DNA of 64,000 nucleotides from Bdellovibrionales bacterium (GCA_050246815.1 JBFWVI010000009.1:3238-67237), one strand, 5' to 3'. Shown: positions 4,029 to 26,436, counted from the stretch's first letter. Numbers and translations: made by a program. Notes: generated by a model not told the origin, from the letters alone.

Positions 4029-4104
<76 letters not shown>

Positions 4105-4430: not shown

Positions 4431-5955
<1,525 letters not shown>

Positions 5956-6096: not shown

Positions 6097-6173
<77 letters not shown>

Positions 6174-6241
6174 TCTTTTCAAGCAAGAGTTCGCGGAAGC
6201 GAAAGTTTGCTTGAGAATATGAGAGGCGAAAGCTTTCTCTG

Positions 6242-6254
6242 TGATCTTTGAAAA
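6242..6254 (+). promoter_or_regulatory. Second boxA-like element in the 16S-23S spacer
   Basis: TGATCTTTGAAAA resembles the leader copy at 4255..4267 and lies upstream of the 23S, as in many rRNA operons. Confidence 0.4.
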
Positions 6255-6404
6255 TAGAATATATTTGTTATCGATAGTTAAGTTTTTAACTATCAGCAAA
6301 AAAACCATAAGTTTTTTATTTTTTAGATTAGAGAAAAGATAAGAATTACTACCTAACAAAAATTAGGTTCAAGTAATTCTTAGCAAGGTGAGTTCAAATA
6401 CGAA

Positions 6405-9387
<2,983 letters not shown>

Positions 9388-9434
9388 TTTATTTGAACTC
9401 AATCCTTGCTAAGAATGACTTGTGCTTAATTTTT

Positions 9435-9550
9435 GCTGGTGTCTATAGCGGCGGGGCCACACCTGATCCCATCCCGAACTCAGAAGTTAAGTCCGCCAGC
9501 GGCGATGGTAGTGCAGCGGTAACGCTGTGGGAGAGTAGCACGATGCCAGC
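9435..9550 (+). rRNA. rrf: 5S ribosomal RNA
   Basis: About 116 nt. The terminal helix is GCTGG.../...CCAGC, and the conserved core CCCATCCCGAACTCAGAAGTTAAG is present. Confidence 0.85.
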
Positions 9551-9560
9551 TTTTTTTTGT

Positions 9561-9705: not shown

Positions 9706-11034
9706 TTGAACTGTAGCGCCTATTTCAAATTGCTTGTGGGGCTTTTGCTTGGACTTTGTGCCGAGGCTTGGGCCGCCACTGATGGGCTGGTGGGCATGCG
9801 CTCCCTGCTGAGTTGGGCAAAAGAAAGCCAAGTGGATTGGCGCGAGGCTACTTACGCACGAGAAAAAGCCGGGATGAGTGTCACTTCGGCGCGCTCGGTG
9901 TTCTTGCCGGATTTAGGTCTGCGCTCGACGTATACTTACGACTGGCAACTTGATGATGCGAAAAGTGACTCGGTTTCATCTGAGGCAATGATCGTTTCGA
10001 CCTGGTCGCTTTATGACAATGGGACTTCGTTTCGAACTTTTCGCATTCGCAATTTGGAATTGGAAAAGGCCAAACTTCAGGAAACCACAGCACACAACTC
10101 AGTGAGCTATGAGGTTTTTGATCGTTACTTGCGCCACCTGTTGGCTCGTCGCCAAAAGGAAATCACCACAGGCAAACTGAATCTTTTGGTGGGGCAGTAT
10201 CGCTTGACTCAGCAACAGTATCGTCAAGGTTTGAAGACACGTCGCGATTACCAGCGGCTCGAGTCCGAGACGGAGCGGGCGCGCCTGAATCTGCTTCGCC
10301 AGGAAAACTCGGAGAAAGATTCTTTCGATGAGCTGAAACGCTATTTGGGCGTAAGTGGCGCGGCACTGACTTCGATGGAAAAATTAAAGATTGTACCGGT
10401 CGCGAGTTTTTTACCAGCCATGCAGCGTATGCGGGATTTTAATAAAATCAAAAAGGACCAAGTTCTAACTGTGCGAACTGCCGAGCTGGACAAAGATGTA
10501 CGCCGGTTACAGAGTTTGCAGGCCGACACGCCGCTTTGGCCAATGGTGGATTTGAATGGTCAGGTGGGTTACGGCTCGCAATCCTTTGCGGGATTTGGCG
10601 AAAGCTGGCGTGATCAGGATCGTTTCTATGGTCAGGGGCTGGTTCAATTCAGCTGGAATTTGTGGGATTGGGGCGGGCGGCGCAGTACGGCTCGTGCGGC
10701 TCAGCTTGATGAAAGGCTTTCTCATTTGCGGTTCGATCAAAGTCGTTTGAACGCAGATGCGGAATTTGAAAGATTGTTGCGCGATTATCTGCGGCTTGAA
10801 AAGTCTTTGGCCGTTGTGCGCAAGGTGCACTCCATCGAATTGAGCACATTTCGTGATATTGAAGTCGAATATCGTGAAGGGCGCGCCTCTTACTTGGACT
10901 TGATCACCAGTTTGGATCGGCGTTCGCAGGCCGAGCTGGACGTGGAGCAAGAAACGGTGGCGATGCTTTTGAATATGTCACAGCTCTTGAGAATGACGGG
11001 GGACCTGTATGAAGCTTGCCTGCAGTTGGACTAA
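9706..11034 (+). CDS. TolC-like outer membrane efflux protein
   Basis: 442 aa from a TTG start. It has a signal peptide (...LGLCAEAWA) and an outer-membrane-factor-like N-terminal pattern (ARSVFLPDLGLRSTYTY). It is the first gene of an overlapping three-gene efflux set. Confidence 0.7.
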   Translation: MNCSAYFKLLVGLLLGLCAEAWAATDGLVGMRSLLSWAKESQVDWREATYAREKAGMSVTSARSVFLPDLGLRSTYTYDWQLDDAKSDSVSSEAMIVSTWSLYDNGTSFRTFRIRNLELEKAKLQETTAHNSVSYEVFDRYLRHLLARRQKEITTGKLNLLVGQYRLTQQQYRQGLKTRRDYQRLESETERARLNLLRQENSEKDSFDELKRYLGVSGAALTSMEKLKIVPVASFLPAMQRMRDFNKIKKDQVLTVRTAELDKDVRRLQSLQADTPLWPMVDLNGQVGYGSQSFAGFGESWRDQDRFYGQGLVQFSWNLWDWGGRRSTARAAQLDERLSHLRFDQSRLNADAEFERLLRDYLRLEKSLAVVRKVHSIELSTFRDIEVEYREGRASYLDLITSLDRRSQAELDVEQETVAMLLNMSQLLRMTGDLYEACLQLD

Positions 11035-11860
11035 TTTTAACCTGGTGATGATGGCAGGGGCGCTCGCTGTGAGTTGCACTAAAAAAATCGATTCCACTGT
11101 CAAAACCGGAAAAGTTGAAAAGACCGACGTTATTCAGCGTACCACATTGAATGGCAGCCTACGTGGCAATCGGCAGAGCCAGATCCAGCCGGGGTACTCT
11201 GGTTATGTGGGCAAAGTTTTTGTGAAGGTCGGTGAAGACGTGAAGGCTGGACAGGCTTTGGTGAGCATCACGCAGACGATCAACCAAAACTTGAACGAAG
11301 TATTTCCGATACGTGCGCCGTTTGCGGGAAAGGTGACTCAAATTCTGAAGCAAGAGGGCGAATACATTTCGACGTCGAGCAGCAACAACGCTTTGTTGGT
11401 GCTGGATGATCTGACCTCGATGTGGATTGATGCCAATATCCCCGAGGTCGACATTGCCAAGGTATCTTTAGGGCTTGAGGCGCAAATTCGTGCCAATGCT
11501 TTGCCCGGACGCACTTACAAGGGGGCGGTACAGACCCTGTCACTGTCTTCCAAGGCCGCCACGGATCGTTGGGACCGAGGCCGGGTGGAGTTTCCGGCTG
11601 AAATTCGAGTGCTGGATCCGGATCAAGATCTGAAGCCCGGCATGACGGTTGTGGTGGATGTGATTTCGGCCAAAGTAGAAGGGGTACTGGCGGTGCGACA
11701 TGAATTTGTGCATCGCGAGCGTGGGGATGTTTTTTTGATCGACAAAAATGATCGGCGTTATCCGGTTGAGCTGGGACTTTCAAATGAAGACATGGTGGAA
11801 ATTCGCAGCGGTGTAAGTGAAGGTTTTGAAGTCAAAATGAAGGACTTCACAAAACTTTGA
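11009..11860 (+). CDS. Efflux pump periplasmic adaptor (MacA/HlyD-family membrane fusion lipoprotein)
   Basis: Lipoprotein-type signal (...MMAGALAVSC). Lipoyl-like hairpin halves GYVGKVFVKVGEDVKAGQALVSI and IRAPFAGKVTQI are present. It overlaps both the upstream and downstream genes. Confidence 0.75.
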   Translation: MKLACSWTNFNLVMMAGALAVSCTKKIDSTVKTGKVEKTDVIQRTTLNGSLRGNRQSQIQPGYSGYVGKVFVKVGEDVKAGQALVSITQTINQNLNEVFPIRAPFAGKVTQILKQEGEYISTSSSNNALLVLDDLTSMWIDANIPEVDIAKVSLGLEAQIRANALPGRTYKGAVQTLSLSSKAATDRWDRGRVEFPAEIRVLDPDQDLKPGMTVVVDVISAKVEGVLAVRHEFVHRERGDVFLIDKNDRRYPVELGLSNEDMVEIRSGVSEGFEVKMKDFTKL

Positions 11861-13950
11861 TGGAGCTGCTGCTTGAAACCCGCAATTTGGGCTTTTCTTA
11901 TAAGACAGGGCCGCCTGTTTTAAAGGGTATTTCGTTTGGAATTCGGCATGGCGAATTTGTGGCAATCACAGGTCCATCGGGCTCGGGCAAGTCGACTTTG
12001 TTTTATTTGTTGGGTGCGCTGACTTCTAAATTCAAAGGCGATATTTTTTTTGAAGGCATTTCTTACCGCACCATGAGTGCCGAGAAAGCCGCCGTGTTTC
12101 GCAATCAAAATATCGGCTTTGTATTTCAGCAGTTTTACCTGCTGCCGCGGGCGAATGTTTTGGACAACATATTGTTACCAGCAAATTATCCCTTTGAAAC
12201 TTCGCGCCCCACACTGGTGGACCAAGAACGAGCTAAAAATTTAGCTCATGAGTTGGGAATAGAGCATTTACTAGAGCGCGGACCACAACAGCTTTCGGGC
12301 GGGCAGCAACAACGAGTGGCGATTGCGCGAGCCCTGCTGCGAGACCCAGATTTGATTTTGGCTGATGAACCCACGGGAAATTTGGACAGTCACTCGAGTG
12401 AGGCGGTTTTTGGCTTGCTGCGCGAGATGAATCGCAAAGGAAAAACCGTGGTTTTGATTACTCACAGCCAAGAACTAGCCAATCAGTGCGAGCGAATCAT
12501 TCGCTTTAAAGATGGTGAAATCGAAGAGGATGTGAAAAATGGATCTAAATCGGCAGAGGGTTCTGTTCAAGAGTCAAAGGGGGCGCTTGAAGGACTGAAT
12601 CTTTCGGACATCGCCAAATTTCGTATGCGGGAACCTTTGGCCCCCGGGTCGCGTTGGATGCAGTTTTTGGCCACATGGTCTTTGGTTTCTTATTGGCGAT
12701 CGCTTCGGCCTGCCATAGAAAATATCCGGCGCAGTAAGGCCAAATCTTTTTTGACGATGCTGGGTGTGGTGCTGGGGATCGCGGCGGTTTTGAGTACGAT
12801 GAGTCTGGGCGATTTTACCAAACGGCGGGTGCTGGCCGGCTATGAGTCAATGGGTGTTAATAACTTGAATTTGAATGGTTATCCAAATTGGCGCCGCAGC
12901 TCGCGTGAATATGCCCCAGCTATTTTTCAGGCCTTTGATTGGCGGCGGGACTTGTTACCATTACAAAAAATATTCACTGAAATTGAGGCCATGTCACCCG
13001 TGCTGCAAGTGTGGAGCCCTAAATTTAATTTCGGCGGTAACACTTTGTCAGACGACACGACCTTGCTGGGGGTGAATGAAGACTATTATATGATCACTAA
13101 TCAGCAGCTTAAGGAGGGGCGACGCTTGATGTGGTTGGACGTCGAGAACGCCCATCCGGTGTGCGTGATTGGCTCAGGCGTGCAGAAGAAACTGTTCCGC
13201 CATGATGCTGCCCTGGATCGCATCGTCACCATTTTGCCGCAAAATCAAGAAAGTGAAATTCCGTGTCGCGTGGTGGGCGTATACAAACCTCAGCCGTCGC
13301 AAAATGCCAACAACCAGCCCGATGATATGATTTACGCACCTTACACCTACTTGCAGCGCGGTTTGACCAATCCTTGGGAGCGGGACATGCGCGGAGTTTC
13401 GATCAAAATCAGTTCCGGTTTTGACCCGGATAAAATGGGCAAACAATTTGAAGGGTATTTTAAGTCCCGCTATGGCAACACGGGCCAATTCAATTCCAAT
13501 TCGAATGCGAAGGCCATCGCCGAGATGCGACTTTTTGTGGCCATTTTTTCATCGCTTTTGACTGCGGTGGCGCTGATCGCCTTGATTGTTGGCGGGGTTG
13601 GGATCAACAACATGATGTTGGTGAATTTATCAGAGCGATTAAAGGAGCTGGGCTTACGCAAGGCCTTGGGCGCGACACCACAGCAGATTCGCGCACTGCT
13701 GCTGACCGAGTCTTTGGTTTTGTGTCTGATCGGCGGTGTGGTGGGTTTGATTTTAGGATTTTGTGGATACCACGGCTTGATCTATGCCGCGACGAAGTTA
13801 ATTCCAAACCTTGAGTTTCAGTGGGTTGTGCTATGGGGGGCTGTGCTGCTGTCGGGAGGCGCGGTCATCATCACGGGACTTTTAAGTGGCATGACTCCGG
13901 CGCTCAAAGCGGAACGTCTTCAAGTTATCGATGCGCTAAGACAGGAATAG
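11860..13950 (+). CDS. macB: MacB-type ABC transporter (fused ATPase + FtsX-like permease)
   Basis: Walker [10 protein letters not shown], signature [15 protein letters not shown] and Walker [13 protein letters not shown]. These are followed by a large periplasmic loop and C-terminal TM helices. The ATG at 11860 overlaps the adaptor stop (TGATG). Confidence 0.85.
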
Positions 13951-14123
13951 CATTTTTTTTCGCAGATAAATTTGTCCAAAAAATATTCAGATTCAACCTG
14001 ATCCCGATTTGGTTGGGGTAAGATGTCTCACTTTGAGACCGTTCGTATTTAAATAAATCTGAAGCTTCTCTCCAAGTTTAAATTGGCTGATAATGGGAGC
14101 AGTAGACTTATGCCGGGGTACCC

Positions 14124-14948
14124 GTGAAAAGAAGCAGTCTTCTTCAAAACCTGAGTGTCATCGTGTTTTTTGCCGGCATGATTTTTTTGTTTCAGAATTG
14201 CAATGTGTTAAGCCGGCCTCAGGCGGTCGACATGTCATCACTTTCGTTGCTTTTATTTCATGACAACTTTGATGTGGCGACTTTACAATGTATGGATTGT
14301 CATGAAAGTGATCGAAAAGACGTCGCTCACTTTGCAGGGCAAGACTGTGCCGGTTGCCATGTGCCTGGCCCAGGTTGGGCTGTAAGCGCGGATGCCGCAC
14401 ATAACCCAGTACCAGTTCAATGCAAATCCTGCCATGCTGATGGAGCCACTTACGATCGATATCCTGTTGGTCATATGGCAATTGCAAGTGGCAGTGATTG
14501 TATTGACTGCCATAAGGCGTCCATCAGTGCGGGCTTTATGGATTGGAAGGGTGGTTTATTTGCACACGATGCTACATTAATCGCAGGAAGAAACTGTTCA
14601 AGCTGCCATGCTGCAGATCGCCCCCCGATCGTTAATTCAACGAACATCAACCCCAGTATCAATGATGCCCGTGTCGTGGATAAAACTCACTTTGCGGCCA
14701 AAGATTGCTTTTACTGCCACAATGCACCACCGACAGGAAACTCGTGGCGAGGTGCCAGTGCCAATCAGTATGAACACACCGATGCATCAGGAATCAAACT
14801 CAATTTCTGCCTCTCTTGCCACATGAGAAGTGAGCATGTGGGCGTACACGGCTCGGTCAACTCGGACTTAGACACAGACGGAAAGTGCCAGCAATGTCAC
14901 CAGAAACGAAGAAGCTGGGACAAATCGCCGCGCAATCCAAACTTGTGA
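14124..14948 (+). CDS. Octaheme c-type cytochrome, probable lipoprotein
   Basis: 274 aa from a GTG start. Eight CXXCH motifs: CMDCH, CAGCH, CKSCH, CIDCH, CSSCH, CFYCH, CLSCH, CQQCH. The signal peptide ends ...IFLFQNC. Confidence 0.8.
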   Translation: MKRSSLLQNLSVIVFFAGMIFLFQNCNVLSRPQAVDMSSLSLLLFHDNFDVATLQCMDCHESDRKDVAHFAGQDCAGCHVPGPGWAVSADAAHNPVPVQCKSCHADGATYDRYPVGHMAIASGSDCIDCHKASISAGFMDWKGGLFAHDATLIAGRNCSSCHAADRPPIVNSTNINPSINDARVVDKTHFAAKDCFYCHNAPPTGNSWRGASANQYEHTDASGIKLNFCLSCHMRSEHVGVHGSVNSDLDTDGKCQQCHQKRRSWDKSPRNPNL

Positions 14949-14950
14949 TT

Positions 14951-15541
14951 TTACTCTTTCAAAAGACGCGACATTTCTTGAATCGACGCAGGGCTTTGCC
15001 AATCTCTAAAACCACTAATCTTGCGGTAAAACTTCAAGCCTTTTTTTAAAATATAGCTTTCAGGCAGCGCTGAAGTTCCATAACTATTAGCGGTCTGTCC
15101 GAATGGGTCCAGCAATGTAATGAAATTCGAACTTGGTTTGATTTTTAAGTTTTTAAAAAAATCGAGCACCACGGACGAATTCTTGTCTTGCGAGATCGCG
15201 AGGATAAGAATTTCTTTTTCAAAGCTTCTTGAAAATTGAAGAAGAGAGGGCAGTTCGTCCAAACAGGGTTTGCACCAGGTAGCCCAAAAGTTAACGATCA
15301 CAATCTTATCTGTATGGTCTTGAATGGCAAATGGGCTTCCGTTCAAGTCAAGAAGCGAGAAGTGCGGCGCTTGTTGAAAGGGCGTCTGTAGAGTCGCAAT
15401 ATCAAGGTCCGAGGGATTGATTTCTGGATTCACAACATAGCGATCGACAAGTTTGTAGGTGCCGAAGGCGATGGCCACTACCGCGAGCAAAATCAGCGTT
15501 GTGGTTAAAGTCCGAGATCGAATGTGAACTGGTTGTGACAT
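14951..15541 (-). CDS. Membrane-anchored TlpA/ResA-like thiol-disulfide oxidoreductase
   Basis: 196 aa with an N-terminal TM helix (TLILLAVVAIAFGTY) and a thioredoxin-fold active site, FWATWCKPCLDELP. Its start overlaps the 3' end of the 30-heme gene by 37 nt. Confidence 0.8.
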   Translation of the reverse strand: MSQPVHIRSRTLTTTLILLAVVAIAFGTYKLVDRYVVNPEINPSDLDIATLQTPFQQAPHFSLLDLNGSPFAIQDHTDKIVIVNFWATWCKPCLDELPSLLQFSRSFEKEILILAISQDKNSSVVLDFFKNLKIKPSSNFITLLDPFGQTANSYGTSALPESYILKKGLKFYRKISGFRDWQSPASIQEMSRLLKE

Positions 15542-17985
15542 TTATTACATTCCTGCACGCCTAAAATTGGTGCGTGATTGAAGGTGGAGTTATCGACGTT
15601 GTTGCGATGGCAGTCTGTGCAGCTTGAGTAAGTGCCCTGGTAGACTCCATTGTTGTGGCACGAGAAACAATCCAAAGCTCGATGACTCCCGCGAAGCGGG
15701 AAGGCTGTCATGGAGTGGCGAAATTTTGAATGCTCCCAAAATGTTTGTCGGTGGCATTCGCTGCAATTGGGTAAGGAGCCATTGTGGACGTCGTCTTTTT
15801 GGTGGCAGACAGAGCAGCTTTCGCTGAGGCCCGAAAGTTTACGATCTTCTCGGTGGCACTCCACGCAAGACAGCGTAAAGTGGCTCGCATGCAAAGTGAA
15901 ATTGCGGTGAAAGTCCTTTACGATGGACCAACCTTTGTCGATGTGGCAGCTTTGGCAGCGATTGCCGAATTGCCCCTTATGGGTATCATCTCTTTTGTGG
16001 CAGTCGACGCAATCGGTTGAGAGTGGCCGATAGAGAGTTAATCTGTAGGCCTTCTGGTCGGGGCCAAATTGCACGCGCTTAGTTTCGTGGGGTTTATGGC
16101 AATCGCTGCATTTTGTCTTGACGTGTTTACCCGATAGCGCAAACCGTGTGCCCTTGTTGTGATTGAAGTTGGTCGGCGACCACTTTTTTTCGTTATGACA
16201 ATTTTGGCAGCTGATTCCTAATTGGCCAGCATGAAAATCAGAGTGACAAGTGGTGCAGGATTTTTTTTCCAGATCTGGGAAAAGAAAGCGGTGCCAAACT
16301 ACTTCTTTTTGTCCGTAAGTCGAGCGGTTCAATGGCTTGTGACAATCGGCGCATTTAAGATCTTTGTGCCGCCCTTTAAGGGAAAATGCGGTTCGCTCAT
16401 GGTCAAAGGATTTGAGATCAGAAAAGCGAGTGGTGGTATGGCATTCGGTGCAATTTTTTGCCGAAAATGCGGTGTGGAATTGATCCAAGTGAGGGTTGCG
16501 ATGACAATCGAGACAAAATCCGGATTCAAAGCTTGGAAACTTAAAGACTTGCTTGCCGTTTTGATTGTGGCACGAGGAGCATTTAAGATTTTGATGCTGG
16601 CCGCTGAGCTGGAATCGGGTTTGATTGTGATCGAAAGTTCCTTTTTTGTCATTGGGTTGCAGATGCCAGCCCTCTGTAATATGGCAAGTGCTGCACTTTT
16701 TATTTGTAAAAGCCTTTGATGGAGAGCCCAAGTGAGGGTTTTGGTGGCAGGCGTTGCAGCTGGCGGAGGTTAGGTTGTGCCATAAATATCGGCCTGGCTT
16801 GTTGGCCCTATGCAGTGGCATCAAGAGTCCAGCTTTCTTTTTTTCCGGTAGATGGCAGTCCGCGCAAGACAGTGCGCTGTGTTTGCCATCGATTTCAAAG
16901 CGAGTGTTTGTTGAGTGGTTGAAGTCGTGAGTTTTCTTCCAATCGGATTCGGAATGACAGGATAAGCAGTTGTTTGGATTTTTTATGCGTGGAGATTTGT
17001 AGGCGCCAAACAAATGCTGATCTTTATGACAAGTGAGGCAGGCTTGTGAGAGGCCTTTGTAGTTGAGTTGGGCCGCTTTGGGCCGGCCGGCGTTTTGTTT
17101 ATGACAGTCTGTGCAGCGAAGCTGGGCGTGTTTGCCGCGAAGCGGATAGCCGGTGTTTTGGTGTGGGAAGCTTGTTGTCTTCCAGCTAGTTTGATTGTGG
17201 CATGTGGTGCAATTGCCGTTTTGATATTTAGCCGAAAGATTTTGTCGGTGAGGCGATTCATGACAGCTAAGGCACTTTGAGCTTGAAAGCTGTTTCCAAT
17301 GATAGCGCGCAGGTGACTTGGGGGTGGTCGGCTTCTGAGGGGAGTGACAGTCTTGGCACTTTAACTGAGCGTGCTTTTCTTCAAGCTGAAATCGCGTATC
17401 CCGATTGTGATCAAATTTGGTTACTGTTTTCCAGGCCTGACTGTTGTGGCATGCATCACAGTCCTTTCGGGCCCACTTATCCGTGAACTGATGAATGTCG
17501 TCTTTGCGGTGGCAAGAGATGCAGCTTGAGATCTGCCCAATGTAGCGGACCCCGTCGGGTCGAATAGGCTTTTGTGAGCGCTTTTGTTTGTGGCAGTCCG
17601 TGCACTTGAGTTGAGCGTGTTTGCCCGTCAGCGAAAGGCCTGTGATGTCATGGTTGAACTTGGCTTCGTTCAAAATTGTTGTATCATGTTGGCGACCTTG
17701 GTGGTCGGAATGGCAGTCCTGGCACTTTTTATCTGTGCGTCCGTGCAGTCCGCGTTTTTCATTTACGAACGGCAGGATCTCCTTATGGCATTCAAGGCAT
17801 TTTTGGCTGGGCAGTCCTTTGCCCGCATCGTGGCATTTCATGCAGTCCGTGGCCTCTAAGTCTTTGTGCCCTTCGATAAGGGGGCCTGGTGCAAAGAGTT
17901 TATTGAGCAGGGCTTCCCGACTGGCCTCTTGGGCTTGCAGGACAACAGGTATCAAAACCAGTAGGGTATAGAGCCAACGCTTCAT
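15505..17985 (-). CDS. 30-heme c-type cytochrome (secreted)
   Basis: 826 aa with a signal peptide (LIPVVLQA/QEA). I counted 30 CXXCH motifs. The segment F-x-H-x(2-4)-T-x-F-x-L-x-G-x-H-x2-L-x-C-x2-CH recurs nine times, at hemes 4, 7, 10, 13, 16, 19, 22, 25 and 28. Confidence 0.85.
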   Translation of the reverse strand: MKRWLYTLLVLIPVVLQAQEASREALLNKLFAPGPLIEGHKDLEATDCMKCHDAGKGLPSQKCLECHKEILPFVNEKRGLHGRTDKKCQDCHSDHQGRQHDTTILNEAKFNHDITGLSLTGKHAQLKCTDCHKQKRSQKPIRPDGVRYIGQISSCISCHRKDDIHQFTDKWARKDCDACHNSQAWKTVTKFDHNRDTRFQLEEKHAQLKCQDCHSPQKPTTPKSPARYHWKQLSSSKCLSCHESPHRQNLSAKYQNGNCTTCHNQTSWKTTSFPHQNTGYPLRGKHAQLRCTDCHKQNAGRPKAAQLNYKGLSQACLTCHKDQHLFGAYKSPRIKNPNNCLSCHSESDWKKTHDFNHSTNTRFEIDGKHSALSCADCHLPEKKKAGLLMPLHRANKPGRYLWHNLTSASCNACHQNPHLGSPSKAFTNKKCSTCHITEGWHLQPNDKKGTFDHNQTRFQLSGQHQNLKCSSCHNQNGKQVFKFPSFESGFCLDCHRNPHLDQFHTAFSAKNCTECHTTTRFSDLKSFDHERTAFSLKGRHKDLKCADCHKPLNRSTYGQKEVVWHRFLFPDLEKKSCTTCHSDFHAGQLGISCQNCHNEKKWSPTNFNHNKGTRFALSGKHVKTKCSDCHKPHETKRVQFGPDQKAYRLTLYRPLSTDCVDCHKRDDTHKGQFGNRCQSCHIDKGWSIVKDFHRNFTLHASHFTLSCVECHREDRKLSGLSESCSVCHQKDDVHNGSLPNCSECHRQTFWEHSKFRHSMTAFPLRGSHRALDCFSCHNNGVYQGTYSSCTDCHRNNVDNSTFNHAPILGVQECNKCHNQFTFDLGL

Positions 17986-19313
17986 AAGCGTCCCCGCGGT
18001 GGCGTGCCGTCTCGGAGCGGAGAAATTTTTTGATTGCCGAACAAAAGTGTGACTTGGAAGAGCGCAGAATAGATTTCAACTTTTTCGTCTCGTTGGTACT
18101 GTAGACTGGCGGCGCCAAAAAAACGCCGTGAGACTTGGAAGGCATAAGTGGCTTCACCGATGATCGGGTGCAGGTGTTGACCCGTGGTCTCAGTTTCAGC
18201 GCCAAGGTCAATTGAGAACTCATACTCATCTTTGTCGGTGAAATAGCCAAAGCTGTATCCGCCATAAGTGCCAGTTTTCGTAAATTCCTTTTTTTGTGCA
18301 AGTCGGTAAGACATATCGATGTTTTTGGAGTGTATTCTTGGCGTTTTACATTCGCCAGTGACATTTAAGCGCTCCAAGTCATCCGCGCTTCGTTTTCCGT
18401 AGCGGGTTTGGAGGGTCCAGCGAAGCGTTGGACTAGAGAGCAGGGTGCCACGAAGAGACGCTTCTTTGTATGGGCTGGGCTCTAATTGTTCGCGTAGGTC
18501 CTGGGCACGGCGATATTCGACAACGTCGTAGGCGCTCAGACCTAATTGAGTGAAAAAGCGGGATGTCCATTTTTGGTCATAGAGAGCCAACCCATTTTGA
18601 ACGTAAGTGCGAGGCACAAAATCCAAGTACACCATACTTGAGACTTGGCTCCCCACGGCCCATTGATAGGCGCTTCTTTGGTAGAGGTACTGGCGATCAG
18701 TTTGGCCATCGTATTGTTGTGTGACGTGGGCCACATGAAGTTCTTTGCGTGTAGTCCATGACGGTGTTTTGGGAGTCAGCGAAGCTATCGCGCCGAAGGT
18801 GGTGGCCTTTTCGCGAAACTGGAGATAGCTTTTGTCATATTGTTTTGGGTTAAGGCCGGCAAAGGCTTCGGCGCTAAAACTTTGCGACAGCCGCCATCCA
18901 ATGCTCGCGCCATCGTTGAATGTAGCGCCAGCATCTGGTATCGCATAGCGGCCGACCTCAAAAATAAGACCTTCTGAATTGGGATTTTTTCGTAAGGAGA
19001 GTTGGCGGACTTGGAATGAGTTGTGATCTGTCAGTTCCTGTCTTTCGCGGTCTAGCTTATTGAAAAAATCATGTTTGTCCCTGAGATCCGAGGTGAAGAC
19101 CCACTCGCGCGTGAGCAGGTCCCCCGCACGATAGTAAAACCGGGCCGACGAAGTGGCAAAATCATTGTTGTCGGTGCTGAAGGGCTCGGGCTCATGTTTT
19201 TCATGGGAGAAAAAGGCGCCAAAGCTAAGGCGCCCGTGTTCATCAAAGGCAAAAGTGGGGACCGCAAAGACGGCCCCAAACAACATCGGGATAAGTAAGC
19301 TTTTACTTTTCAT
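17982..19313 (-). CDS. Putative outer-membrane beta-barrel (porin-like) protein
   Basis: 443 aa with a signal peptide (MLFGAVFAVPTFA/FDEH). It shows alternating hydrophobic/polar stretches rich in Y/F/G (for example YEFSIDLGAETE...ATYAFQVSRRFFGAASLQYQ...IYSALFQVTLLF). Its stop overlaps the cytochrome start (ATGA). No family was recognised by eye. Confidence 0.5.
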   Translation of the reverse strand: MKSKSLLIPMLFGAVFAVPTFAFDEHGRLSFGAFFSHEKHEPEPFSTDNNDFATSSARFYYRAGDLLTREWVFTSDLRDKHDFFNKLDRERQELTDHNSFQVRQLSLRKNPNSEGLIFEVGRYAIPDAGATFNDGASIGWRLSQSFSAEAFAGLNPKQYDKSYLQFREKATTFGAIASLTPKTPSWTTRKELHVAHVTQQYDGQTDRQYLYQRSAYQWAVGSQVSSMVYLDFVPRTYVQNGLALYDQKWTSRFFTQLGLSAYDVVEYRRAQDLREQLEPSPYKEASLRGTLLSSPTLRWTLQTRYGKRSADDLERLNVTGECKTPRIHSKNIDMSYRLAQKKEFTKTGTYGGYSFGYFTDKDEYEFSIDLGAETETTGQHLHPIIGEATYAFQVSRRFFGAASLQYQRDEKVEIYSALFQVTLLFGNQKISPLRDGTPPRGRL

Positions 19314-19342
19314 TTCAATCAGGCTCTGTCTAGAATGCTAGC

Positions 19343-21085
19343 GTGGGATGGCTTAAACGTCAGCTTTTGTTCAAAATCTTTTCCTCGGTCAAATTCGCCG
19401 TCCCGTTGCTGTTGGTCATCGCGGCGGTGATCGCGGCCGGGACCTTGGTTGAGAGTCGATACAACGCCAGCTATGCACAAATGCGAGTCTATGAAACCTG
19501 GTGGTTTCGCGCTCTGATGGGCTGTTTGGGGCTTTCTGTTTTCACGGCGGCATTGTCACGCTGGCCATGGCAAAAGCGCCACGTGGGTTTTTTAGTCACG
19601 CATCTAGGTATTTTGATGATGCTGGCGGGAGGCGTGGTCACAAAACTTTGGGGCATTGATGGTCAGTTGCAGATACCCGAAGGAAAGTCGGGGCAGCAGG
19701 TGTTTATTTCGGAGCGTGTCTTTGAGTACTCAGGACCAAGAGATTTTAAGAAAATTCTCATCCCCACAAGCGCGAGTGCGTGGCGTGAAGGGTGGTTGAG
19801 CCCGGTCAGGCAGGAGCCGGATTCACCTGCGCAAGTCGTGGGATTTGAGCCTTTTGTACGACCTCGTGCTCAAAGCGGCCCCCGGGGAGCAGGGGGGAAG
19901 TTCATTGCGTTTCGCCTGCAAAGCCAGTTTTTTGATCAGGAGGAATGGCTGGACTCCGTTGAGCGACCACAAATTCAAATGGGGCCGGCGCTGATTCGCT
20001 TTGGTATGCAAGAAAAGATGCTCGTGCCAAAGCAGGAGCCGCTGCATAAAAAAGACTTTGTGGGACTGTTTATTCGAGACGCCGATGGCGAAGCCGTTGC
20101 CAAACGTCTAGACATTGGTCTTGGGCAGCGCGAAGCCCGCATCGGGGCTGTGAAAATTCAGGTGAAGCAAGTTCTGAAGCGTGCCACTGTGGCGGACAAC
20201 AAGATCGCGGAGGGCGATAGCGGCCCGCTTAACCCAGCACTGGAGATTGAGATCTTAGCGAATGGAAAAACATATCGCGATGTGATTTTCTCGCGCTTCC
20301 CAAGCTTTTCCCTTCTGAAAGAAAATCCAACTCGCTTTCGCTTCGAATACGTGGCTGGAGGTTCGGGAGAATCGCTACAAAATGAGGATGCCGCGCGCAA
20401 TTTAATTGAATTTATTCCTTCGCCTGAGCAATCGGACAAAGCCATTTTGAGGTTGTCCAAGCAAGGCAAAGTCATTTTAGAGAAAGAAGTAAAAGTCGGA
20501 GAGCCAACCGATACTCCATGGATGGGTATGAAAGTGACTTTAGTTTCCTTAACTGCGCCTGAAACCAATACAGCGCAGGCGGAGAAAATTGAGACTATTC
20601 GCCCCACGCCTAAACAGCCCAATTTGCCGCCGAGTGCAATTTTAGTTCGTGTGGCAGGCGAGCAACCTCCTTTTTGGCTGGTGGAGGGCGATATCAAGGA
20701 TGTTCAGGTTCGAGGAGAGCGTTACCAGTTCTATTATGGGCTTAATTCCATTCGCTTGCCGTTTGCGCTTGAGCTCTTAAAATTTACAAAAGTTGACTAT
20801 CCGGGAACTGAGACTGCGATGTCGTTTGCGAGTGACGTTCGCGTCGTAACAGACCAAAGTCGACATACAATTTCGATGAATGAACCATTGAAACGAGATG
20901 GTTACACTCTTTATCAGAGCAGTTATGATCTACAACCGGGACGCCCTGCGCTTTCGATCTTTTCTGTGAATCGGGACCCTGGGCGTTGGATCAAATACAT
21001 GGGCGGATTGGTTTTAGCATTTGGGATTGTCACGCTGACCATAACGAGAAGCCGGATGGCGCGGCGGAGCGGGAAACAAGTATGA
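19343..21085 (+). CDS. ccsB: Cytochrome c biogenesis protein CcsB/ResB (System II)
   Basis: 580 aa from a GTG start. The ResB-like N-terminus is KFAVPLLLVIAAVIAAGTLVESRYN..., followed by a large periplasmic domain and a C-terminal TM. It overlaps ccsA by 4 nt. Confidence 0.8.
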   Translation: MGWLKRQLLFKIFSSVKFAVPLLLVIAAVIAAGTLVESRYNASYAQMRVYETWWFRALMGCLGLSVFTAALSRWPWQKRHVGFLVTHLGILMMLAGGVVTKLWGIDGQLQIPEGKSGQQVFISERVFEYSGPRDFKKILIPTSASAWREGWLSPVRQEPDSPAQVVGFEPFVRPRAQSGPRGAGGKFIAFRLQSQFFDQEEWLDSVERPQIQMGPALIRFGMQEKMLVPKQEPLHKKDFVGLFIRDADGEAVAKRLDIGLGQREARIGAVKIQVKQVLKRATVADNKIAEGDSGPLNPALEIEILANGKTYRDVIFSRFPSFSLLKENPTRFRFEYVAGGSGESLQNEDAARNLIEFIPSPEQSDKAILRLSKQGKVILEKEVKVGEPTDTPWMGMKVTLVSLTAPETNTAQAEKIETIRPTPKQPNLPPSAILVRVAGEQPPFWLVEGDIKDVQVRGERYQFYYGLNSIRLPFALELLKFTKVDYPGTETAMSFASDVRVVTDQSRHTISMNEPLKRDGYTLYQSSYDLQPGRPALSIFSVNRDPGRWIKYMGGLVLAFGIVTLTITRSRMARRSGKQV

Positions 21086-22725
21086 AAAGAAACTGGCTCG
21101 TCTTGATATGTATGCTGTGCATTCCCTCATCGGTCATGGCCCTGACAGATCCGCATGAGGCATTTTTAAGTCATGGCCGACAGATTCGAAGCCAGCTTTT
21201 TGAAACTTTGCCTGTACATGATCGTGGACGTATTAAGCCGGCACATACTTTTATGCGCGAGGCGATTTTATTTGTAACGGGAGGTTATAACTTCAGCGGG
21301 CTGGATGCCGTACAAACTTATCTGAGTCTTATCGGCTTTTCTGAAATTGAGCGGCTCAAAGTATTGAACGTCAGGCATGTGCCTGTGCGCAAAGCCTTGG
21401 GTTTGAACGCGTCAGCGAGATTTTTTTCAACGGCGGATATCGAAAGCAGTAAGTTATTGGAATTTGCTCAGCCGTTGTTGGAAAAGGAAGAGAAAAATTC
21501 GCGAGCGCTTGAGCCCCACGAAAAAAACCTGCTTGAAATCTACAACCAGTATTGGCTGTTAAAAAATATTCATTCAGGCCAACACTTGCTGCGGGCCGTG
21601 GATGCAAATGAGGTGGGACATGCGGCTGAATTCCACCAAGAGCCGACCGGCGAAGCGGTGCAAAAAGTTAGAGATTGGTTACAGGCGACTATCGATGGGA
21701 ATTGGAACTTAGTTTCGGAGTTGCGTTCACTTACATTCGAAGCTGTACGCCAACAACATTGGCCCGAGCTTTTTGCCAAGCAATTTGAGCACCTAGAAAG
21801 AGAAGTTCAGTACAACAAAATTCGCCCATTTTTAATCGCAGGCCTGCTTTTTTTAATTCTTGGCGCGAGCTTGGCGTTTAAGGACCATGTGCCGTTTCTA
21901 TCGAAGGTTAACTTTGGTTATTTACTTGTGCTGCCTTTTTTTCCGCTGGCCTATGGCCTTTATCTAAGAGTGATCATCACCGGGTTTGCGCCTGTGACCA
22001 ATATGTACGGAACCATGATCTGGGTTTCGTTTGGTATAGGGCTGTTCAGTCTAGTTTTATGGTATCTGTATCAAAAGCACCGTTTTGTCGGCGGCCTTTG
22101 GATCGCCGCCGCGGCAACACTTTTTTTAACTGAGAGTATTCCGCTGGTTCTAAGCCCGGATCTTGACCCAATTGTCGCTGTTTTACGGTCGAATCTGTGG
22201 CTGACCATCCATGTGCTCACGATTGTCATTTCTTATGCGGCCTTTGCTATTGCGATGATCCTTGGCAATATCGTTTTGATTCGTACTTTGCGTCGGCCTG
22301 TCTATGATGATCCTGCCATTCGCGATGCCGCCAAATCTTGCTACAGAATGATCCAGCTTGGCGTTTTTTTACTTTCCGGAGGCATTATTTTAGGAGGTGT
22401 CTGGGCGGATTACTCTTGGGGGCGTTTTTGGGGGTGGGATCCGAAAGAAACATGGGCCTTAATCGCAGATCTTGGCTTTTTGGCCATTCTACATGCGAAA
22501 TACGTCGGATGGCTGGGGGCCTATGGTCTGTTGGCGGCCTCGACTGTTGCATTTTTGCTTGTGATCATGGCCTGGTACGGCGTCAATTTTATACTTGCGG
22601 CGGGCCTGCACTCTTATGGCTTTTCGAGCGGCGGAGCGACAATGGTATTGGTTTTCGTGATCATGCAATTGGGGTTGTTGGCCGCCTCTCTTATGCGTTA
22701 TTCGCGGAGTAAAGTGGTAAGGTGA
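21082..22725 (+). CDS. ccsA: Cytochrome c biogenesis protein CcsA/ResC (System II heme handling) with a long N-terminal periplasmic extension
   Basis: Trp-rich WWD-type heme motif WGRFWGWDPKETWALI and multiple TM helices. The ATG at 21082 (MKRNWLVLICML...) overlaps the ccsB stop (ATGA). The ORF-track start at 20986 lies inside ccsB. Confidence 0.85.
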   Translation: MKRNWLVLICMLCIPSSVMALTDPHEAFLSHGRQIRSQLFETLPVHDRGRIKPAHTFMREAILFVTGGYNFSGLDAVQTYLSLIGFSEIERLKVLNVRHVPVRKALGLNASARFFSTADIESSKLLEFAQPLLEKEEKNSRALEPHEKNLLEIYNQYWLLKNIHSGQHLLRAVDANEVGHAAEFHQEPTGEAVQKVRDWLQATIDGNWNLVSELRSLTFEAVRQQHWPELFAKQFEHLEREVQYNKIRPFLIAGLLFLILGASLAFKDHVPFLSKVNFGYLLVLPFFPLAYGLYLRVIITGFAPVTNMYGTMIWVSFGIGLFSLVLWYLYQKHRFVGGLWIAAAATLFLTESIPLVLSPDLDPIVAVLRSNLWLTIHVLTIVISYAAFAIAMILGNIVLIRTLRRPVYDDPAIRDAAKSCYRMIQLGVFLLSGGIILGGVWADYSWGRFWGWDPKETWALIADLGFLAILHAKYVGWLGAYGLLAASTVAFLLVIMAWYGVNFILAAGLHSYGFSSGGATMVLVFVIMQLGLLAASLMRYSRSKVVR

Positions 22726-22729
22726 ACAT

Positions 22730-24073
22730 ATGAAATGGCTGGTGATGTTGTTAGACCATCTTTGGATCTGGGGTTTACTTATTTTTGGTGGACTGGCCTA
22801 TTACGGTGTCGCAAAAAAAAATCGGCAAGAAAATCAGGCAAAAAAAATTTTGCAAAAAGCTGTGGCGACCGGGCTTGATGAGCCGTTGAGTCTGCACCCA
22901 GAGGTCGACCCGGCGAAATGCGCGGGTTGTGGCGCCTGCACGAAGGTTTGCCCCGAAGGTGACATTCTTAAAATGATCAACAGCAAGGCTGTTTTGGTTT
23001 CACCAACGAAGTGTGTGGGCCACGGCGAATGCGAGCGCGCCTGCCCCTTTGGCGCCATTGACTTGGTATTTGGCACTAAAAAACGTGGTGTCGATATTCC
23101 ACGCCTTTCTAAGAACTATGAAACAAATGTACCTGGACTGTATATTGCGGGTGAGTTGGGCGGCATGGGGCTGATCCGCAATGCGATCAAACAAGGCCAT
23201 CAGGCTGCAGATCATGCCTTGAGCAATTTAAATCCCAGCGTGAAATCCGACACGGATGTGCTTGTCGTTGGGGCTGGTCCCGCCGGATTGGCGGTATGCC
23301 TGACGGCGATCGTGCATAAAAAGCGTTATCTATGTATTGAGCAGAATACGGCCGGTGGTACGGTTTATAATTTTCCTCGGCAAAAAGTTGTGATGACCCA
23401 TCCAGCGGATCTGCCGGGTGTAGGGAAAATGAAGTTTCCGCGTAATGTGGTTTCAAAAGAGGAGCTGTTGCACTATTGGAATCAAGTGCGGCAAAAGGTC
23501 GGAATTAAGATTAGAGAAAATGAAAAATTTGAGGGACTTGAAAAGGTCGGAGATCATTTCAAAGTCAAGACCTCAAAGGCGGAGTACATGGCCCAAAAGG
23601 TTGTCTTGGCTATGGGTGTGCGAGGCTCGCCTAGGCGCTTGGGCTTGCCAAATGAAGACACGACAGGTGTGGCTTATAACTTGATTGATCCGGCACAATA
23701 TACGAACAAAAAAATCGCGGTGGTGGGCGGCGGTAATGCCGGTGTGGAAGCTGCGCAGATGCTGGCTAACCCTAAATATAAAAATCAGGTGACTTTGTTG
23801 GTGCGTGGTCCTGCATTTGATCGTTGCAATGAGGACAATAAGCGAATTATTGAGGATATGGCCCAAAAAAAAATGGTCCAAATTTGGTATGAAGCCCAAG
23901 TGAAGGAAATTAAAAAAGACCAGCTGAATATTGAGCGTGCGGGGCAATTGCTGGACATCGAGAATGATCAGCTTTTTGTATTCGCAGGCGCCGAGATGCC
24001 GTTTAAGTTTTTGATGAGCTTAGGAGTCGAAATTAATAAAGCTTTTGGTCAGAAATTGAAGTCGGGTGGATAA
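22730..24073 (+). CDS. Membrane-anchored 2x[Fe-S] ferredoxin-domain / FAD-NAD(P)H oxidoreductase
   Basis: 447 aa. The N-terminal TM helix is followed by a K/R-rich stretch. The first cluster motif is CAGCGACTKVCP; the second is CVGHGECERACP, with His where the second Cys is expected. Two Rossmann motifs are present: VLVVGAGPAGLA and IAVVGGGNAGVEAA. No CXXC dithiol occurs outside the Fe-S domain. Confidence 0.8.
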   Translation: MKWLVMLLDHLWIWGLLIFGGLAYYGVAKKNRQENQAKKILQKAVATGLDEPLSLHPEVDPAKCAGCGACTKVCPEGDILKMINSKAVLVSPTKCVGHGECERACPFGAIDLVFGTKKRGVDIPRLSKNYETNVPGLYIAGELGGMGLIRNAIKQGHQAADHALSNLNPSVKSDTDVLVVGAGPAGLAVCLTAIVHKKRYLCIEQNTAGGTVYNFPRQKVVMTHPADLPGVGKMKFPRNVVSKEELLHYWNQVRQKVGIKIRENEKFEGLEKVGDHFKVKTSKAEYMAQKVVLAMGVRGSPRRLGLPNEDTTGVAYNLIDPAQYTNKKIAVVGGGNAGVEAAQMLANPKYKNQVTLLVRGPAFDRCNEDNKRIIEDMAQKKMVQIWYEAQVKEIKKDQLNIERAGQLLDIENDQLFVFAGAEMPFKFLMSLGVEINKAFGQKLKSGG

Positions 24074-24943
24074 ATGATCGCGTGGTTCGGCCGACAATTG
24101 ATTTTGCTTTGGTTTTTTATCGCGCTGATCCTGTGTTGGGAGTACTTAGCCTTGAACTACAGTCCTGGCTTAAGTCTATTGTTGTTTGCAAAAATAAAGT
24201 GGCCCTATTGGGCAGAAGTCGATTTTTCGACAAAACCTGGAAAGCCGATCAGCTATGCATTGGGTTGGATCGGTTTTGGGTTTATGGTCTCTACAAACTT
24301 TTATATTTTGCGTAAGCGTTTGGGCATTATGCAAAAGTGGGGCAACCCATCGGTCTGGCTGGATTATCATATTTTTTGTGGTTTGATCGGCCCCACTCTT
24401 ATTATTTTTCATACTGACTTTAAAGTTCGTGGCTTGGTCGCAATTAGTTTTTGGTCCATGATGATCGTTGCGGGCAGCGGTATTTTAGGACGATATCTGT
24501 ATATGAAGGTCTTGATTGGCGCAGCCGAATTGAGGGGGCAGATTCAAGAGTGGGATAAAAAAATTTCGACCTTAATCACATCCAGCAAAAAAAATGTGAC
24601 CGAAGCTGAGATCGCGGGCTTAAAAGGGATGGCACTGCAATACGCGGGGGCCACGCCGCTGACGGAAGAGGTCGTGGGGTTGAGTGGATTATTTAAAATC
24701 GTTTGGTTTTCTGTTGTTGGCGATATCAAAATATTTTTTTCGCATGCGGGGATTGGACGCCATCTTCATCCGTTGGCACCTATTGTACTTTTAAATTACG
24801 CCACCACGGTCCGGCGCGAACTCACGCTTGAACCCTTTCGCCGTCTTTTGGGCTACTGGCATGCGTTTCATGTGCCCTTTACGTTCGCGATGTACATCAC
24901 GGCTATCATCCACATCGTGGTCGTCTCGCTGCTGCGGGTCTAA
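24074..24943 (+). CDS. Integral membrane protein with two H-x13-H helices (candidate di-heme b-type cytochrome)
   Basis: 289 aa with about 5 hydrophobic helices. YHIFCGLIGPTLIIFH and FHVPFTFAMYITAIIH each carry two His separated by exactly 13 residues. The start codon abuts the upstream stop with zero gap. Confidence 0.6.
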   Translation: MIAWFGRQLILLWFFIALILCWEYLALNYSPGLSLLLFAKIKWPYWAEVDFSTKPGKPISYALGWIGFGFMVSTNFYILRKRLGIMQKWGNPSVWLDYHIFCGLIGPTLIIFHTDFKVRGLVAISFWSMMIVAGSGILGRYLYMKVLIGAAELRGQIQEWDKKISTLITSSKKNVTEAEIAGLKGMALQYAGATPLTEEVVGLSGLFKIVWFSVVGDIKIFFSHAGIGRHLHPLAPIVLLNYATTVRRELTLEPFRRLLGYWHAFHVPFTFAMYITAIIHIVVVSLLRV

Positions 24944-24951
24944 TGTCGCTT

Positions 24952-26253: not shown

Positions 26254-26436
26254 AATATTCCCCCTGATTGCGGTTTGATCTAAACCTGGTCTCATTGGGA
26301 TCTATTGTGAGATTGTTGGGGCGGGTTTGTCCAGAGCAAGATGGGCATAGGCAGAATACGGTTTAGTTTAACGCGATTGTGTGTAGGTTTGCCGACAATT
26401 TGAAAAGGGAGCGCAAGCAGCTCCCCTTTCGATCAT

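Follow-up and report, generated by a model that had tools for sequence, protein, structure and literature searches.

The stretch analysed here is a 64,000-nucleotide window of a Bdellovibrionales bacterium (GCA_050246815.1 JBFWVI010000009.1:3238-67237), and all positions are counted from its first letter. Between positions 14124 and 24943 it carries a dense cluster of genes for multiheme cytochromes c, a β-barrel protein and membrane redox proteins. A preliminary description of the same DNA had proposed that the interval 14124-19313 encodes a porin-cytochrome-type conduit of a previously undescribed kind. ORF listing and motif counting confirmed the positions of all four open reading frames (ORFs) named there. 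However, the interval itself proved too short, covering only about half of the unit, as the conserved part extends to position 24943. On balance, we lean towards reading the region 14124-24943 as a five-part, envelope-spanning electron conduit that is accompanied by its own cytochrome c maturation genes. The region comprises the following genes:

14124-14948, plus strand: octaheme lipoprotein cytochrome c, 274 amino acids (aa); CXXCH count and lipobox
14951-15541, minus strand: ResA/TlpA-like thioredoxin, 196 aa, membrane-anchored; Pfam and WCKPC motif
15505-17985, minus strand: 30-heme cytochrome c, 826 aa, with Sec signal peptide; CXXCH count
17982-19313, minus strand: barrel protein, 443 aa, with Sec signal peptide; AlphaFold2 and Foldseek
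19343-21085, plus strand: ResB/CcsB, System II cytochrome c synthase subunit; Pfam ResB, 3e-24
21082-22725, plus strand: CcsA/ResC, System II heme-handling subunit; Pfam Cytochrom_C_asm, 2.3e-26
22730-24073, plus strand: flavoprotein with a 2x[4Fe-4S] ferredoxin part and an FAD/NAD(P)H part, 447 aa, anchored by a transmembrane (TM) helix; Pfam
24074-24943, plus strand: putative diheme cytochrome b with five TM helices, 289 aa; His pattern and weak DUF4405 similarity

Several of these genes overlap or abut. The stop codon of the barrel gene and the start codon of the 30-heme cytochrome gene share the ATGA at 17982-17985, and the cytochrome gene overlaps the TlpA-like ORF by 37 nucleotides (15505-15541). 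Both overlaps had been reported before, as had the convergent orientation of the plus-strand octaheme lipoprotein gene, and all three were found again here. The CcsA ORF was listed from position 20986; according to the junction sequence, its likely start is at 21082, within an ATGA that overlaps the stop codon of ResB. The candidate cytochrome b gene begins on the base directly following the stop codon of the flavoprotein gene. The barrel gene and resB are divergent, with start codons only 29 nucleotides apart (19314-19342), and the same gap measures 3 nucleotides in the closest relative, locus L005. Given the 29-nucleotide gap, the promoters of both operons must be located within coding sequence, or regulation is unusual. 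A promoter and terminator scan of 13800-25200 gave counts no higher than those of shuffled sequence, and the operon boundaries are therefore drawn from gene overlaps only.

Related loci were collected by exact-protein look-up, by scanning a single genome for each GTDB species and through distant homologues of the 289-aa protein. This yielded about 40 loci with a barrel identity of 23-57%, which were compared in a BLAST-based synteny table. The species scan contributed 32 loci; apart from two, these carry labels of Bdellovibrionota taxa, among them Bdellovibrionales, Pseudobdellovibrionaceae, Bacteriovoracaceae, Oligoflexia and Pseudobacteriovorax. Metagenome-assembled genomes (MAGs) carrying the cluster were recovered from lakes, groundwater and sludge. 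A phylogenetic profile had been suggested in the preliminary description; it shows that the gene set recurs across the roughly 40 loci and belongs to Bdellovibrionota apart from the two loci labelled otherwise. In every locus examined, the long cytochrome gene directly follows the barrel gene, mostly with an overlap of the two coding regions. Of the 30 loci with enough flanking sequence, 27 contain both the flavoprotein and the 289-aa protein, and almost every locus encodes a second cytochrome that bears a lipoprotein signal. The genes for ResB, CcsA and the TlpA-like protein lie beside this module in most loci, namely those nearest to the arrangement in the window. They are absent near the module in L003/L021, L009, L017, L019, L033, L035 and L036 as well as in the Oligoflexia loci L038-L040, altogether at least eleven loci. 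Such maturation-free operons come in two gene orders: in one, cytochrome b and flavoprotein precede (small cytochrome), barrel and long cytochrome; in the other, the barrel and long cytochrome are preceded by flavoprotein, a cytochrome and cytochrome b. Since these loci keep the module without ResB, CcsA and the TlpA-like gene, the conserved functional unit consists of five genes, and the three maturation genes are a lineage-specific addition.

The protein encoded at 17982-19313 had been described as β-barrel-like, and the AlphaFold2 model agrees. Based on an alignment of 59 sequences, it predicts a 22-strand β-barrel (pLDDT 87, pTM 0.78) and not a soluble or non-barrel protein. The longest non-strand segment has about 19 residues, and the model thus contains neither a plug domain nor a long constriction loop. 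Among the 50 matches listed by Foldseek against the PDB there were only outer-membrane barrels, the ushers FimD and PapC first and then porins, with TM-scores of at most about 0.5; no chain of 6R2Q, MtrB included, was among these 50. The barrel sequence matched no Pfam family (MtrB_PioB included) and no NCBIfam family, and a search of the family profile against PDB sequences returned chance-level matches only, MtrB not being found. Relatives of the barrel numbered 59 at 31-57% identity; those named in their source are all labelled 'hypothetical', and nearly all of these bear the label of a Bdellovibrionales-type MAG. An exhaustive search of the barrel profile against 1.84 billion cluster representatives identified 334 proteins at E<=1e-3, of which 144 reached E<=1e-30. 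Full-length members of the family have about 420-500 aa (among the 150 matches listed), and ten of the weakest members listed, nine of them full-length, gave no Pfam family. By these sequence comparisons the barrel founds a family without annotation in Pfam, NCBIfam or the PDB. We calculated from standard barrel geometry that 22 strands with a shear of about 24 result in a C-alpha diameter of about 40 Å. Without a plug, a pore of this width must be filled by something, as it would otherwise be an open hole; to our knowledge, all solved barrels of at least 22 strands have their pore occupied, either by a plug domain or by another protein as partner.

The product of 15505-17985 is a secreted 30-heme cytochrome, as had been proposed. 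It possesses a Sec signal peptide and exactly 30 CXXCH motifs, and all 60 Cys residues fall within these motifs. CXXCK, already reported to be missing, does not occur in the protein, nor does CX3-4CH. A nitrite or hydroxylamine enzyme was rejected because no CXXCK or other catalytic motif was present and the scores for NrfB and NrfH were far under the cut-off. The 30 heme sites are arranged as ten tandem triheme c7-like units of 64-92 residues each, which share the pattern W..F.H..T.F.L.GKH..L.C..CH ... C..CH ... C..CH; this tenfold repetition shows that the series of heme motifs is not a chance pattern. The whole protein has only four Met residues, so that bis-His coordination is likely for all 30 hemes. 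Pfam Cytochrome_C7 (PF14522) matched seven stretches with 130 bits (cut-off 24.8), placing the protein among the c7-type triheme polymers, which consist of tandem cytochrome c7 triheme domains. The NCBIfam model TIGR04257 (nanowire_3heme) scored 36.7 bits, just below its cut-off of 40. Scores were also under threshold for TIGR03508 (DmsE/MtrA; 88.4 bits, cut-off 192.2), ExtN (30.6, cut-off 200) and the GSU2203 family (48.2, cut-off 325), and HmcA matched weakly with 40.8 bits. A phmmer search with the whole protein against the PDB gave no match at E<=1e-3. With a profile of the repeat unit, the best match was MtrA (6R2Q_A, 3.4e-10), followed by MtrC, and fragments of GSU1996 were found weakly (3OUQ, E=0.009).

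Orthologues of the long cytochrome carry 21, 24, 27, 30 or 33 hemes, in steps of three, with one carrying 29. Across 27 aligned orthologues, units 1-2 and 9-10 are kept in all sequences, unit 9 being the best conserved, and the shorter proteins are without internal units (3-5 and 8). After the signal peptide, the N-terminal segment (GLLNKLLAPGPL.xGH) hardly varies between orthologues. Conserved ends that are separated by differing numbers of identical spacers fit a strut that docks at both ends. GSU1996 accommodates 12 hemes in about 12 nm and MtrA 10 hemes in about 8 nm; at such packing, 30 hemes would span roughly 24-30 nm. We propose that the protein is a periplasm-spanning wire, one end of which threads the barrel. 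A modelled 27-heme wire cytochrome is about 350 Å long, compared to a periplasm of about 170 Å (PMC11492766).

The second cytochrome of the cluster contains 8 CXXCH motifs in the window, and its N-terminus ends with ...LFQNC. In every complete N-terminus of a second cytochrome, a Cys closes the hydrophobic segment (FQNC, LQGC, VGC and similar, with FQNC common in this lineage), and the earlier assignment as a lipoprotein therefore holds. Between the lipobox and the first heme site follows a conserved stretch, ..P.V.D......F.H. In contrast to this conserved end, the heme count ranges between 4 and 42 across loci, and the remainder of the protein has between 131 and >1200 residues. A docking end that is conserved, together with an unconstrained length, suggests an outward-projecting surface component rather than a periplasmic bridge of fixed span, and the lipoprotein cytochrome is probably located at the cell surface. 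The octaheme protein scored 26.5 bits with TIGR03507 (OmcA/MtrC; cut-off 209.3) and 27.6 with Pfam Mtrc-MtrF_II-IV_dom (cut-off 30). The same unusual 'QNC' lipobox occurs in a dehydrogenase-like lipoprotein encoded at 24952-26295, the signal peptide of which ends with ...IAQNC. Its presence in both proteins suggests a lineage-typical lipobox.

The flavoprotein matched Pfam Pyr_redox_3 (2e-39) and Fer4 families and holds both dinucleotide-binding motifs. Closest in the PDB to its flavin domain are YpdA/Bdr (7A76, 7A7B), thioredoxin reductases and ferredoxin-NADP reductases of the thioredoxin reductase (TrxR) type. No CxxC was found in residues 170-447, GAGPAG takes the place of the YpdA-type Cys motif GxGPCG, and TIGR04018 scored 154.6 bits (cut-off 339.9). 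An identity as YpdA/Bdr or thioredoxin reductase was rejected, since the redox-active Cys of both is absent. All 28 flavoprotein orthologues begin with a TM helix followed by a Lys/Arg-rich stretch, indicating that the catalytic part faces the cytoplasm. Likewise, all 28 have the motif CxxCxxCxxxCP and, 19 residues later, CxxHxxCxxxCP. The motif region lies at 22916-23062 in the window (residues 63-111), and the second iron-sulfur (Fe-S) motif reads CVGHGECERACP. A conserved His thus replaces one cluster Cys, and the second motif may bind a [4Fe-4S] cluster with His ligation, from which electrons would leave the protein. We know of no described ferredoxin-domain family that is defined by CxxHxxCxxxCP. 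The protein would in effect be a ferredoxin fused to a reductase resembling ferredoxin-NADP reductase (FNR) and tethered next to the putative diheme cytochrome b. In locus L011 (4224-8073), the flavoprotein and CcsA are broken into several ORFs by frameshifts or long-read assembly errors. An extra thioredoxin gene adjoins the flavoprotein gene in locus L004 (1069-1509).

The 289-aa protein belongs to a family of 140 clusters at 90% identity. Four His residues (H99, H113, H266 and H280) are invariant in 62 sequences and form two Hx13H pairs in predicted TM helices; this is the four-His/two-helix arrangement of diheme cytochromes b of the DUF4405 and ferric-reductase-like type. In the AlphaFold2 model (pLDDT 92), the His pairs are located within long helices. 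Helix boundaries and the positive-inside rule predict five TM helices, the N-terminus lying on the cytoplasmic side and the C-terminus on the periplasmic side. H99/H266 would accordingly be positioned near the cytoplasmic face and H113/H280 near the periplasmic face, and a helical insert of about 110 residues would be cytoplasmic. Among the 62 family members, 50 showed weak matches to DUF4405 (best 7e-5) and nine to Ferric_reduct (best 0.027), and single members weakly matched PepSY_TM or Ni_hydr_CYTB. All four are families of two-heme membrane cytochromes. A purified DUF4405 protein binds heme b and was proposed to act as a transmembrane electron carrier (PMC11334425).

The TlpA-like protein had been included in the cluster proposed as a candidate conduit; a role in the conduit itself was not supported. 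It consists of an N-terminal TM helix and a domain with WCKPC that scored above the Pfam cut-offs for AhpC-TSA, Redoxin and Thioredoxin_8; its best NCBIfam match was ResA with 69.9 bits, under the cut-off of 170. The gene was seen only in loci that also carry ResB/CcsA. With ResB, Cytochrom_C_asm and AhpC-TSA/Redoxin all above the Pfam gathering scores, ResB, CcsA and ResA of the System II set for cytochrome c maturation are all represented, while the NCBIfam equivalog cut-offs were not reached (for CcsA, TIGR03144 gave 131 bits, cut-off 187.6). The scores of CcsA and ResA below these cut-offs mark both as divergent members. Judging from its domains and neighbourhood, the TlpA-like protein most likely serves System II as its thiol-reducing component (ResA/CcsX) and is not part of the conduit. 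The ResB and CcsA genes of this set are located just beyond the interval 14124-19313 of the preliminary description. Common to the cluster and to System II (ResA-ResB-ResC or CcsX-CcsB-CcsA) are ResB, Cytochrom_C_asm and a membrane-anchored CxxC thioredoxin, all adjacent. The cluster differs in that it contains no CcdA and that the maturation genes are interleaved with their presumed chief substrate.

Generic porin-cytochrome systems are recognised by a barrel gene adjacent to a gene for a secreted multiheme cytochrome, which was found in every locus. The cytochrome may be seated inside the barrel, with electrons crossing the outer membrane, for which the lack of a plug gives indirect support. 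Membership in the Mtr type (MtrAB/PioAB/MtoAB) was rejected, since the barrel, the long cytochrome and the lipoprotein cytochrome fall outside the MtrB, MtrA and MtrC families, respectively. The cluster resembles Mtr in its combination of a barrel gene with a secreted and a lipoprotein multiheme cytochrome, in the proposed insulation of a cytochrome inside the barrel, and in that MtrA (6R2Q_A), and next MtrC, is the best solved relative of the triheme unit. In contrast, the barrel is modelled with 22 strands and its mature form comprises about 420 residues, whereas MtrB has 26 strands and about 700 aa, and MtrB_PioB barrels generally have 26-28 strands. The cytochrome has 30 hemes in ten repeats instead of 10 hemes, its similarity to MtrA being confined to the level of the repeat unit, and the surface partner has 8 hemes and is no decaheme cytochrome of the OmcA/MtrC family. 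In addition, Mtr is fed by CymA and soluble periplasmic carriers, while the window co-encodes a flavoprotein and a cytochrome b and its long cytochrome may span the periplasm.

The Geobacter systems OmaB-OmbB-OmcB and ExtABCD likewise combine a porin-like protein, a periplasmic multiheme cytochrome and an outer-membrane lipoprotein cytochrome, and are also independent of Mtr. Heme counts are 8 and 12 in these porin-cytochrome (Pcc) conduits, compared to 30 and 8 in the window, and the barrel had no NCBIfam match to Geobacter Pcc/Ext proteins, as far as the libraries hold OmbB-type models. As stated in the preliminary description, sizes and heme counts differ from those of Mtr and Pcc, with 22 predicted strands and 30 + 8 hemes found here. 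Geobacter c7-polymer 'nanowires' (GSU1996/OmcQ with 12 hemes, and 27-heme relatives) are similar linear wires of tandem triheme c7 units. However, they are not encoded together with a barrel, and one heme per unit of GSU1996 has His-Met ligation, unlike the presumably all bis-His protein of the window. The Geobacter conduits are fed from quinol via ImcH, CbcL or CbcBA and PpcA-type carriers (PMC11492766).

The inner-membrane pair is reminiscent of NOX/ferric reductases, Fre-MsrQ and DUF4405 proteins, in which electrons pass from a cytoplasmic NAD(P)H flavoprotein to two b hemes that carry them across the membrane, the ligand His residues being paired at a spacing of 13 residues on two helices. 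Membership in the NADPH oxidase (NOX/FRE) family was rejected, since the flavoprotein is a separate polypeptide with a Pyr_redox_3/TrxR fold and Fer4 instead of an FNR-type domain. Further differences from NOX and MsrQ are the five predicted TM helices of the 289-aa protein, its helical insert of about 110 aa and its lack of a structural neighbour in the PDB, as well as the proposed acceptor, which would be a multiheme cytochrome in place of O2, an Fe(III) chelate or MsrP. The Hmc/Tmc complexes of Desulfovibrio also connect a periplasmic high-molecular-weight multiheme cytochrome, a membrane cytochrome b and cytoplasmic Fe-S proteins, and quinones are not obligatory. They differ by HdrD-like Fe-S and NarI/NrfD-type subunits, by having neither flavoprotein nor outer-membrane component, and by inward electron flow. 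We know of no counterpart of an inner-membrane feed as encoded in the window among the described porin-cytochrome systems.

Taken together, the plug-less barrel, its coupling to a big cytochrome, the lipoprotein cytochrome, and the lack of both a catalytic heme motif and a characterised homologue support the core of the preliminary description, namely an undescribed porin-cytochrome-type conduit of neither Mtr nor Pcc type; only the role of the TlpA-like protein and the extent of the cluster had to be corrected. No description of the cluster was found in the literature on extracellular electron transfer (EET), multiheme cytochromes or porins of Bdellovibrionota, on DUF4405 or on porin-cytochromes of Oligoflexia. 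A preprint reports generic EET-type matches in Bdellovibrionia MAGs, and surveys only flagged 'EET-like' cytochromes in Bdellovibrionota.

From the gene content, motifs, predicted folds, conservation and synteny described above we infer an electron path, including the binding of cofactors, the contacts between the proteins, the surface position of the lipoprotein cytochrome, the outward direction, the kind of acceptor and electron transfer itself. The flavoprotein, tethered to the inner membrane on its cytoplasmic side, would oxidise NAD(P)H and pass electrons via FAD and two [4Fe-4S] clusters, one of them with His in place of Cys. The five-TM diheme cytochrome b would then carry them over the inner membrane, with one heme at each face (H99/H266 and H113/H280). 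The ten triheme units of the 30-heme cytochrome would bridge the periplasm, the conserved N- and C-terminal units serving as docking ends, and one end of the chain would be placed inside the plug-less 22-strand barrel as MtrA is inside MtrB. At the surface, the conserved N-terminal heme domain of the lipoprotein cytochrome would take over the electrons and deliver them to an acceptor outside the cell. Attachment of the 38 hemes would be the task of ResB, CcsA and the TlpA/ResA-like protein.

A number of observations speak against such a conduit or parts of it. The barrel ends in a conserved disordered tail, P.RDGAPPRG.L (17982-18017, the last 11 residues, pLDDT <40), and is without the C-terminal aromatic residue that is usual for outer-membrane proteins; the tail might act in docking, either of the cytochrome or of the β-barrel assembly (BAM) machinery. 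The 289-aa protein of the window gave no Pfam match even at E<=1, and a Foldseek search of its model against the PDB returned no match below E=0.8 and hence no structural link to MsrQ or NOX. Heme binding by this protein, deduced from the His pattern and weak similarity at the level of the family, remains putative. Three loci with adequate flanks (L006, L030 and L032) are without a nearby flavoprotein and cytochrome b, and one locus (L039) has no second cytochrome. Two second-cytochrome orthologues have Asp at position +2, an inner-membrane retention signal of lipoproteins in E. coli, and sorting is not predictable from sequence. Finally, a path starting from NAD(P)H would skip the quinone pool and consume membrane potential instead of building it, with no obvious benefit to the cell. 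A path that consumes potential would be an electron sink or a device that reduces something outside rather than a coupling site.

The co-encoded inner-membrane entry module suggests that NAD(P)H, and not quinol, feeds the conduit. Outward flow is favoured because the hemes are apparently all bis-His and hence of low potential, which is compatible with an NAD(P)H donor, and because reduction of NAD(P)+ from outside against the membrane potential would require an unusually strong reductant. In its most specific form, the proposed conduit would be a hard-wired NAD(P)H-to-outside exporter, an 'NADPH oxidase' extended across the envelope that uses neither quinone pool nor soluble periplasmic carriers, has a single 21-33-heme bridge and is confined to Bdellovibrionota. 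We put this version forward tentatively, as a possibility that in this strict form is rather doubtful. If correct, the system might serve as an electron sink under O2 limitation, or as a reductive or reactive-oxygen tool against prey or for the acquisition of iron.

The same hardware might also operate with another direction or feed, taking up electrons from outside (minerals, reduced humics or prey) or from donors in the periplasm and handing them to an acceptor in the cytoplasm, as in Hmc/Tmc. Mtr-type complexes such as MtoAB and PioAB are known to run both ways, and a high-molecular-weight multiheme cytochrome with a membrane cytochrome b and cytoplasmic Fe-S proteins follows the logic of Hmc/Tmc, to which the weak match to HmcA (40.8 bits) would conform; moreover, inward flow would build membrane potential instead of consuming it. 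However, to reduce NAD(P)+ (about -320 mV) against the membrane potential, the donor would have to lie far below -400 mV, and such donors are uncommon in lakes, groundwater and sludge; the flavoprotein is without a disulfide or another obvious site for an alternative acceptor. We consider inward flow improbable.

A further alternative concerns the inner-membrane pair, which might substitute for CcdA/DsbD in reducing the ResA/TlpA-like protein, the barrel and its cytochrome then being fed from the quinone pool by proteins encoded elsewhere. The pair adjoins ResB-CcsA and lies near the ResA-like gene in most Bdellovibrionales loci, the window included, no protein of the window cluster matched CcdA/DsbD in Pfam, the nearest relatives of the flavin domain include thiol-disulfide reductases, and the additional thioredoxin gene of L004 lies next to the flavoprotein gene. 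Against this, at least eleven loci keep the pair in an operon with the barrel and the cytochromes without neighbouring ResA, ResB and CcsA, and the flavoprotein has neither CxxC nor the YpdA-type Cys. Electrons would also have to pass from heme b to a thioredoxin disulfide, and we know of no such electron-transfer route. A function of the pair in thiol reduction is highly unlikely.

It is similarly hard to credit that no wire crosses the outer membrane at all, the 30-heme protein being a periplasmic electron store (capacitor) or a carrier serving some periplasmic enzyme and the barrel an ordinary channel or assembly factor sharing the operon: c7-polymer cytochromes of Geobacter such as GSU1996 have been discussed as periplasmic electron stores (PMC10138318) and the barrel has no sequence relation to MtrB, but barrel and cytochrome genes are adjacent in every locus and usually overlap across deep divergence, a plug-less 22-strand barrel needs to be filled, MtrA, to which the repeat unit comes closest, is the only cytochrome known to run through a barrel, and a lipoprotein cytochrome co-occurs with the pair.

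The well-studied conduits (Mtr, Pcc/Ext and Cyc2) are found in a few metal-respiring or iron-oxidising lineages and are quinone-fed via diffusing periplasmic carriers, and Bdellovibrionota are known for predation and aerobic growth. If the envelope-spanning conduit proposed here is real, it would represent an independently evolved barrel family for outer-membrane electron conduits and would place extracellular electron transfer in Bdellovibrionota. The modular length of its cytochrome (7-11 triheme units) would suggest a direct bridge between both membranes, and its co-encoded inner-membrane entry would apparently draw on NAD(P)H. The compact set of five structural and three maturation genes is tractable for heterologous reconstitution and could serve as a marker in metagenome surveys.

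Outside the cluster, the following features were identified in the window:

4029-4101: tRNA
4430-5947: 16S rRNA, first gene of a complete rRNA operon
6097-6170: tRNA of the rRNA operon
6405-9386: 23S rRNA
9435-9551: 5S rRNA
9706-13950, plus strand: MacAB-TolC-like efflux operon with a TolC-like channel, an adaptor lipoprotein (...AVSC) and a fused ABC/FtsX MacB-like pump
24952-26295, minus strand: pyrroloquinoline quinone (PQQ)-type glucose/sorbosone dehydrogenase-like lipoprotein; Pfam GSDH, 1e-67
31575-35772, plus strand: two tandem prolyl-oligopeptidase (S9) paralogues, 705 and 692 aa
35782-57111, plus strand: single 7109-aa ORF rich in Calx-beta and FG-GAP repeats

The MacAB-TolC-like operon is located immediately upstream of the octaheme cytochrome gene. 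PQQ-type glucose/sorbosone dehydrogenases can pass electrons to cytochromes. Both the efflux genes and the GSDH-like gene were rejected as parts of the system, since they do not recur in the related loci. The 7109-aa ORF presumably encodes a giant surface adhesin-like protein. ORFs listed inside 4029-9551 are spurious, and the 16S rRNA gene is usable for a precise taxonomic assignment.

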